The position numbers were made by a program, and so were the translations under genes. Below the pieces are notes generated by a model. The model made no database searches and had not been told where the DNA came from. It saw only the letters and a program-made list of their open reading frames with translations. A DNA stretch of 64,000 bases from Escherichia coli (GTDB taxonomy: Bacteria > Pseudomonadota > Gammaproteobacteria > Enterobacterales > Enterobacteriaceae), in the NCBI RefSeq assembly GCF_003019035.1, contig NZ_CP027447.1; one strand, 5' to 3'. Shown in pieces: positions 23,769-23,883 of this stretch; position 1 is the first letter of the stretch; the number at the start of each line of letters is the position of its first letter.

Positions 23769-23796
23769 AAAAAAACCTGCCGGAGCAGGTTTTTTG
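23769..23796 (-). terminator. Intrinsic terminator downstream of azuC
   Basis: Hairpin CCTGCTCCGGCAGG flanked by A/T runs (AAAAAACCTGCCGGAGCAGGTTTTTTG on plus). Confidence 0.65.
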
Positions 23797-23883
23797 TTAT
23801 CGGAACATATTGCCTGGCGGTACGTCTTTGAACGTCTTGCAATAGTTATTGAACATACTTTTCAGGATTTTGCGCAGTTTCAT
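23797..23883 (-). CDS. azuC: Small membrane protein AzuC (28 aa)
   Basis: Manual translation of minus strand gives MKLRKILKSMFNNYCKTFKDVPPGNMFR, matching AzuC; below the 60-aa cutoff of the ORF track. Confidence 0.9.
   Translation of the reverse strand: MKLRKILKSMFNNYCKTFKDVPPGNMFR

Follow-up and report, generated by a model that had tools for sequence, protein, structure and literature searches.

The azuCR locus of an Escherichia coli genome: an intact small-protein gene with a predicted second role as a base-pairing RNA

Short RNAs that both encode a small protein and act by base pairing include SgrS/SgrT and Spot 42/SpfP of Escherichia coli and VcdRP of Vibrio cholerae. The targets of these dual-function RNAs are mRNAs of carbon metabolism, and Spot 42 and VcdRP are repressed by CRP. 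The AzuCR RNA of E. coli resembles them in all of this; none of SgrS, Spot 42 and VcdRP is homologous to it. The layout also differs: SgrS and VcdRP keep coding and pairing in separate regions, but in AzuCR the two regions overlap and compete.

PMC8915982 describes AzuCR in E. coli K-12 as an RNA that was originally found as an sRNA candidate, and gives its length (164 nt) and start site. Its small protein, AzuC, is amphipathic and membrane-associated, binds GlpD and raises its dehydrogenase activity (PMC8915982; review PMC12612679). As an sRNA (AzuR), the transcript pairs directly with cadA and galE and represses them; compensatory mutations restore repression, and deletion of azuCR raises cadA-gfp. 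The same study places the pairing region within the azuC coding sequence, near the cadA ribosome-binding site, reports that the sRNA effects were seen largely with overexpression, and finds AzuCR associated with Hfq and ProQ. [quoted passage not shown] The AzuC protein has been detected in K-12 as a tagged protein, with an antiserum and by ribosome profiling.

We analyzed a stretch of 64,000 nucleotides from an E. coli genome (NCBI RefSeq assembly GCF_003019035.1, contig NZ_CP027447.1; the window), in which azuC had been predicted on the minus strand. Direct reading of that strand gives an ATG at 23883, 28 sense codons and a TAA at 23799..23797, and the translation of this ORF (23883 to 23797) is exactly MKLRKILKSMFNNYCKTFKDVPPGNMFR, as had been read by hand in the original prediction. 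The 28-aa protein is an exact match to AZUC_ECOLI. It also scores 75.9 bits against NCBIfam NF033642 (stress_AzuC, equivalog; cutoff 30, E = 1.3e-21), with an alignment that spans profile positions 1–26 of 26; Pfam returned no family for the AzuC protein. The identification of the gene as azuC is borne out by a protein and a transcript that are both identical to the K-12 reference, and alignment with reference azuC, the check that had been suggested, revealed neither a frameshift nor a loss of the start codon. We conclude that the locus is almost certainly the E. coli azuCR (isrB/IS092), intact and wild type. Its features, all on the minus strand, are listed here with their window coordinates.

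23762..23925, minus strand: AzuCR (IsrB/IS092) transcript, 164 nt, 164 of 164 nt identical to MG1655
23769..23795, minus strand: intrinsic terminator, made of A6, CCTGC-TCCG-GCAGG and T7 (by folding)
23797..23883, minus strand: azuC coding sequence, 28 codons and TAA, 87 of 87 nt identical to K-12 b4663
23813..23855, minus strand: predicted AzuR region pairing with cadA, inside the coding sequence (transcript nt 71–113; local duplex scan)
23891..23894, minus strand: Shine-Dalgarno sequence GGAG, 7 nt upstream of the ATG (identity 0.98 in 72 aligned orthologues)
23908..23914, minus strand: FnrS target CACCUGU in the 5’ UTR (transcript nt 12–18; 25–31 nt upstream of the ORF)
23932..23937, minus strand: -10 hexamer TATTAT, 7 nt upstream of the start site (promoter scan; identity 0.99)
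23936..23951, minus strand: proximal CRP site TGTGAtggttgTCATA, centered at -18.5, overlapping the -10 hexamer and the spacer
23954..23959, minus strand: -35 hexamer TTGATT, with a 16-nt spacer (promoter scan; identity across genera 0.95)
23963..23982, minus strand: FNR site, mapped from K-12 1988039–1988058 (PMC12266141)
23966..23981, minus strand: distal CRP site TGTGAtttgcaTCACA, centered at -48.5, overlapping the published FNR and PhoP sites
23970..23987, minus strand: PhoP site, mapped from K-12 1988046–1988063 (PMC12266141)
23984..24000, minus strand: putative NarP repressor site, mapped from K-12 1988060–1988076 (PMC12266141) and of the same sequence as there

Alignment to MG1655 revealed 100% identity from 23925 to 23762. 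In the 401 bases compared, the differences lie at 24098..24100 (at the 5’ end), 24081, 24021, 23972, 23928, 23760 and 23724, together with a 1-nt indel near 24030, and all of them fall outside the transcript. The 164-nt transcript and the 28-aa protein are thus those of K-12 azuC (b4663) and azuR (b4434). The -35 and -10 hexamers, both CRP sites, the ribosome-binding site, the FnrS site, the terminator and the neighbourhood are also the same. The single-base changes relative to K-12 at 23928 (promoter position -3), 23972 and 23760 (just past the 3’ end) touch no recognised motif position. The MG1655 annotation places azuC (b4663) at 1987873..1987959 and the ncRNA azuR (b4434) at 1987843..1988001. 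With the coordinate offset of 1,964,076 between the window and K-12, K-12 position 1988001 falls on the transcript 5’ end, 23925, and the azuR feature maps to 23767..23925. The gene order ftnB, yecJ, azuC, yecR, ftnA is that of K-12.

The locus is present in nearly all complete E. coli genomes. The 401 bases around the ORF were matched in 5,419 of 5,426, and the 164-nt transcript in 5,418 of 5,426, with 3,787 matches at 99% identity or more. It had been suggested that azuC escapes a 60-aa ORF cutoff and is easily overlooked in automated annotation. The default cutoff does miss azuC, but every record among the 40 matches listed annotates it, as ‘stress response protein AzuC’, and NCBI uses the name AzuC in other genera as well; azuC is therefore an already known and routinely annotated coding sequence. 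What is overlooked is the RNA role, which carries no annotation in the one PGAP-annotated record inspected, whereas K-12 has the azuR ncRNA feature. The interval originally given, 23769..23883, is exactly the coding sequence plus the terminator, but the functional unit is wider and extends from about 24000 to 23762.

Searches of Rfam 15 gave no match to an AzuCR, IsrB or IS092 family. Two sub-threshold hits, to STnc370 (plus strand, 30 bits against a gathering threshold of 54, E = 0.25) and to rsmX (23 bits against 56), cover the terminator hairpin only and were rejected as chance. A literature search on STnc370 returned nothing tying it to the azuC locus.

The computed properties of the protein agree with those described for K-12 AzuC. 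The helical hydrophobic moment of residues 1–20 is 0.526 (p = 0.014 against 5,000 shuffles), and the net charge is +6. In K-12, the hydrophobic face of the amphipathic helix formed by I6 and L7 is required for membrane association, as reported in a preprint on an I6L7-to-EE mutant; both residues are present in the window protein.

Species-representative genomes were scanned with the degenerate pattern M-K-x2-K-x2-K-x10-K-D/E-x-P-P-G, which itself fixes M1, K2, K5, K8, K19, D20, P22, P23 and G24. The scan gave 75 matches, all of them azuC orthologues of 27–28 codons and nearly all from Enterobacteriaceae. They come from Escherichia, Enterobacter, Citrobacter, the Klebsiella oxytoca group, Kosakonia, Leclercia, Lelliottia, Phytobacter, Cedecea, Siccibacter, Franconibacter, Buttiauxella and Pseudescherichia, and, outside the family, from Acerihabitans. 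Across the 75 orthologues, the numbers of variable columns at codon positions 1, 2 and 3 are 11, 9 and 25 of 27. Compared with the window, the three positions are conserved at 0.91, 0.92 and 0.69, respectively. Among residues that the pattern leaves free, L7, Y14 and M26 are invariant, as are T17 and V21, each of which nevertheless uses all four of its codons. These patterns point to purifying selection acting on the AzuC protein. The ATG is the conserved start, because the in-frame open stretch upstream of it varies from 1 to 57 codons among orthologues.

Conservation outside the coding sequence follows the regulatory elements. The CRP consensus is TGTGA-N6-TCACA, and the proximal site agrees with it at 9 of 10 positions (half-sites 0.99–1.00 and spacer 0.57 across genera), the distal site at 10 of 10 (half-sites 0.90–0.94, spacer 0.56). 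Over the 72 aligned loci, the footprint shows CRP half-sites at 0.90–1.00 against spacers at about 0.56, while the flanks fall to 0.28–0.34. The overlap of the proximal site with the promoter spacer and the -10 hexamer fits the CRP repression published for K-12 (PMC8915982). The mapped FNR, PhoP and NarP sites differ from K-12 only at 23972 (C for T), a base in the central spacer of the CRP motif and likewise of the FNR motif. Downstream of the start site, the GGAG is followed by a spacer to the ATG with an identity of just 0.22 across the 72 aligned orthologues. The FnrS target CACCUGU has an identity of 0.81 across genera and the adjacent 23907..23901 one of 0.88; with the K-12 FnrS 5’ end GCAGGUG, a duplex of 7 bp and -11.5 kcal/mol is predicted.

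The transcript ends in a strong intrinsic terminator, as the original prediction had it. A hairpin (23789..23776) begins after a gap of 7 nt from the TAA; it is preceded by an A6 tract (23795..23790) and followed by T7 (23775..23769). The fold has an energy of -16 kcal/mol against -5.2 +/- 2.2 for shuffled sequences (z = -4.9), and 0 of 200 shuffles were as good. A simple terminator scan gave no azuC terminator, probably because it took the A/T extensions as part of the stem and was left with no T-run; direct folding shows the terminator to be strong. The stems are conserved at 0.98–0.99 and the loop at 0.69 in the 72 aligned loci. Of 76 loci, 72 have the CCTGC/GCAGG stem, around a loop that comes in 15 versions; among the remaining four, three carry another hairpin with a T-run and one is ended by a contig edge. 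AzuC, the CRP-controlled promoter, the FnrS site and the terminator are common to at least 75 species, nearly all of them Enterobacteriaceae.

Pairing with the two published targets was examined by windowed duplex scans. With K-12 cadA as the target, transcript nt 71–113 pair with cadA positions -16 to +25. The duplex energy is -34.8 kcal/mol, against -11.9 +/- 3.2 for shuffled sequences and -26.5 for the best of 500 shuffles. For galE, the scan did not single out one site: several GC-rich candidates lie close together in energy (-28 to -29 kcal/mol), and none of them clearly matches the region described in PMC8915982. The published galE site must nonetheless be present on the AzuCR side, because the window RNA is identical to that of K-12. 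None of glpD, cadA, galE and fnrS lies near the azuC locus. In a strain that has lost cadA, as Shigella and EIEC have, the cadA arm of AzuR would have nothing to act on.

The dual role as mRNA and sRNA, which the original prediction mentioned, is published for the identical K-12 RNA (PMC8915982), and sequence identity would carry it over to this strain. The same identity would carry over transcription of AzuCR, its translation, repression of its targets, control by CRP, FNR and FnrS, and the binding and stimulation of GlpD by AzuC. In the mechanism we propose, a sigma-70 promoter (23959..23954 and 23937..23932) would drive a 164-nt RNA from 23925 to about 23762, which would end at the intrinsic terminator close to the stop codon. 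The two CRP sites, overlapping or adjoining the promoter, would repress it when glucose is absent, and the FNR, NarP and PhoP sites further upstream may add anaerobic and cation-dependent repression. Used as an mRNA, the transcript would be read from the GGAG and ATG at 23894 and 23883 into the 28-residue, +6, amphipathic AzuC. [quoted passage not shown] Translation and pairing would compete, because the coding and pairing regions overlap. Under anaerobiosis, FnrS would pair with CACCUGU at 23914..23908 and block AzuC translation.

Several other readings of the locus were weighed against this one. The history of AzuCR as an sRNA candidate could suggest a purely non-coding sRNA (IsrB/IS092) with a fortuitous 28-codon ORF, and the length of the ORF alone is within chance, as the same 1.8 kb is overlapped by 32 ORFs of 20 aa or longer. 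The ORF is lifted above chance by the 164/164-nt identity with K-12, the NF033642 score, the exact match to AZUC_ECOLI and the coding signature in 75 species. That signature includes the third-position bias (11/9/25), residues that stay invariant while their codons vary, a conserved ribosome-binding site and an invariant ATG. Together with the detection of the protein in K-12 by tag, antiserum and ribosome profiling, it already refutes the non-coding reading, which has practically no chance of being correct. Just as negligible is the chance that the true product is a 48-aa protein starting at a TTG at 23943, which is how a mechanical ORF listing presents the region (a single ORF, 23797..23943). 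Transcription starts at 23925, downstream of this TTG, which falls within the promoter between the -35 and -10 hexamers, so the 28-aa ATG ORF is the real one. The longer frame is not conserved either: the orthologues have anything from 1 to 57 open in-frame codons 5’ of the ATG, and the bases just 5’ of the azuC ATG are weakly conserved (0.22–0.42). Start-site position and lack of conservation thus already refute it. A role for azuC as a leader ORF is very improbable, though a shade less so. Under that reading, translation would gate the gene’s own terminator and control read-through into yecJ, since a ribosome that has reached the stop codon would sit over the 5’ side of the hairpin and could keep it from stopping transcription. 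Two features suggest this. Among the 72 loci with the CCTGC stem, 64 have a stop-to-stem gap of 6–11 nt, and yecJ lies downstream in tandem on the azuC strand in 64 of 76 loci, the two starts mostly 150–220 nt apart. However, the published AzuCR RNA is a discrete 164-nt species (PMC8915982), the fold showed no alternative antiterminator structure, and a trans-acting role of AzuC has been demonstrated in K-12. In addition, yecJ is preceded, downstream of the azuC terminator, by a conserved -10-like element CTACTATAAC (23721..23712, identity 0.69) and by a ribosome-binding site, which suggests that yecJ has its own promoter.

The remaining alternative accepts AzuC and concerns the weight of the RNA role. 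The locus could be a small-protein mRNA only, with AzuR pairing either a product of overexpression or a side activity that arose recently, only in Escherichia, and matters little physiologically; AzuC and its regulation would then fully account for the conservation of the locus. The pattern of conservation across genera is indeed that of a protein-coding gene. Identity at third codon positions is 0.59 in the cadA-pairing stretch (n = 14) against 0.81 in the rest of the coding sequence (n = 9), so the RNA role is not visibly constrained outside Escherichia. The predicted duplex with E. coli cadA has an energy of -34.8 kcal/mol for the window, whereas most other genera reach only about -16 to -25. 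Orthologues are also present in Citrobacter and the Enterobacter cloacae complex, which are typically lysine-decarboxylase negative. Against this stand the K-12 data, in which repression returns when AzuCR and cadA or galE carry compensatory mutations, and cadA-gfp rises on deletion of azuCR (PMC8915982). The window RNA is identical to the K-12 RNA, and its cadA duplex is better than all 500 shuffles. The mRNA-only reading is therefore contradicted for E. coli and partly open for other genera, and overall we consider it unlikely.

For E. coli we thus keep to a dual-function azuCR, and the comparison across genera bears on how its two activities may have come together. One possibility, which we raise tentatively and do not favor over its negation, is that the small-protein gene is old and the sRNA role young, a lineage-specific addition in Escherichia. 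Duplexes with E. coli cadA are predicted at -33.4 kcal/mol for E. albertii and at -28 to -30 for two other Escherichia species; all such cross-genus energies use E. coli cadA as a proxy for each species’ own gene, and co-variation may be hidden by this. Codon 12 is AAT (or GAT) in the Escherichia lineage and commonly GAA elsewhere, and completes a 7-bp helix, UUCAAUA, with cadA +16..+22. Codon 17 is ACG in Escherichia and mostly ACC or ACT elsewhere, and completes ACGUUCA over the cadA start codon. If the possibility holds, an mRNA would have gained a trans-acting sRNA function through coding-sequence changes of its own, including one that affects the protein. The comparison touches a question that the original authors left, namely the evolution of two competing activities.

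For the window itself, azuC is a correct call of a characterised gene and adds little that is new. The main use of the analysis here is a complete annotation, in which the sRNA role and the upstream sites stand together with the 87-nt coding sequence.

[quoted passage not shown] They differ from it at residues 11–13, 16 and 25, and have weaker complementarity to E. coli cadA. Most of them end in ...GAMF, with a TGA after F27 that is often followed by a TAA. Escherichia instead reads CGA (Arg28) at the position of this stop codon and terminates at the next TAA.

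We compared the AzuCR transcript with its surroundings across E. coli genomes. The 401-bp stretch at 23700..24100 had a match of at least 99% in only 131 of 5,419 genomes, and the 164-nt transcript alone was matched at that level in 3,787 of 5,418. As judged from these sequence matches, conservation within E. coli is markedly higher for the transcript than for the sequence directly flanking it. In its flanks the window carries a minority haplotype, which is also found, for example, in strains labelled ST648 and ECONIH1.

In most genera, AzuC is a 27-residue protein whose gene ends in TGA; the next codon is often also a stop, TAA. 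The 28-aa form, which runs one codon further to the next stop, was found in Escherichia, in one Citrobacter amalonaticus genome and in a Pluralibacter genome. The codon concerned in the window is:

23800..23802 (-), azuC codon 28, CGA (Arg), followed by TAA

Some orthologue entries in the database are 43-aa calls with an N-terminal extension, such as ABP61150.1 from Enterobacter sp. 638, annotated as "conserved hypothetical protein". Two unrelated acetyl-CoA acetyltransferases of 398 aa were grouped in one 90% AzuC cluster, which looks like a clustering artefact. None of the 75 hits of the pattern scan was from Salmonella or Klebsiella pneumoniae, and many neighbouring genera were represented. 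This absence may reflect loss of azuC or divergence from the residues fixed in the search pattern.

Upstream of the azuC coding sequence, the 5' UTR contains a short reading frame whose stop codon overlaps the azuC start (ATGA):

23900..23880 (-), six-codon mini-ORF, ATG GTC GGA GTG CCG CGA TGA

This mini-ORF is probably fortuitous, given the low cross-genus conservation of this part of the sequence (identity 0.22-0.42).

The azuC-yecJ tandem extends across genera: in 64 of the 76 loci, yecJ, a DUF2766 gene, lies 3' of azuC in the same orientation. A ribosome-binding site on the minus strand and a conserved -10-like element are present between the azuC terminator and yecJ:

23682..23768 (-), azuC-yecJ intergenic stretch
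23721..23712 (-), -10-like element CTACTATAAC, cross-genus identity 0.69

The azuC terminator has a symmetric layout (A-run, hairpin, T-run) and therefore could end plus-strand transcripts too. Two plus-strand features were recorded around it:

23737..23801 (+), sub-threshold Rfam match to STnc370 (30 bits vs 54, E = 0.25)
23692..23719 (+), promoter-like site about 50 nt upstream, on the same strand

We judged the STnc370 match to be due to chance because only the hairpin aligns.

Between the azuC promoter and yecR there is a further hairpin that was scored as terminator-like in both orientations:

24061..24075 (both strands), GC-rich hairpin GCGCCTGCCAGGCGT with T-rich tails on both strands

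The terminator-like count that includes this hairpin is within shuffle expectation (2 found vs 1.0 +/- 0.9 expected). Elsewhere in the window, other RNA genes were identified by Rfam with scores exceeding the gathering thresholds:

9439..9516 (+), C0465 sRNA
59698..59784 (-), DsrA sRNA
27730..28028 (-), cluster of three tRNAs
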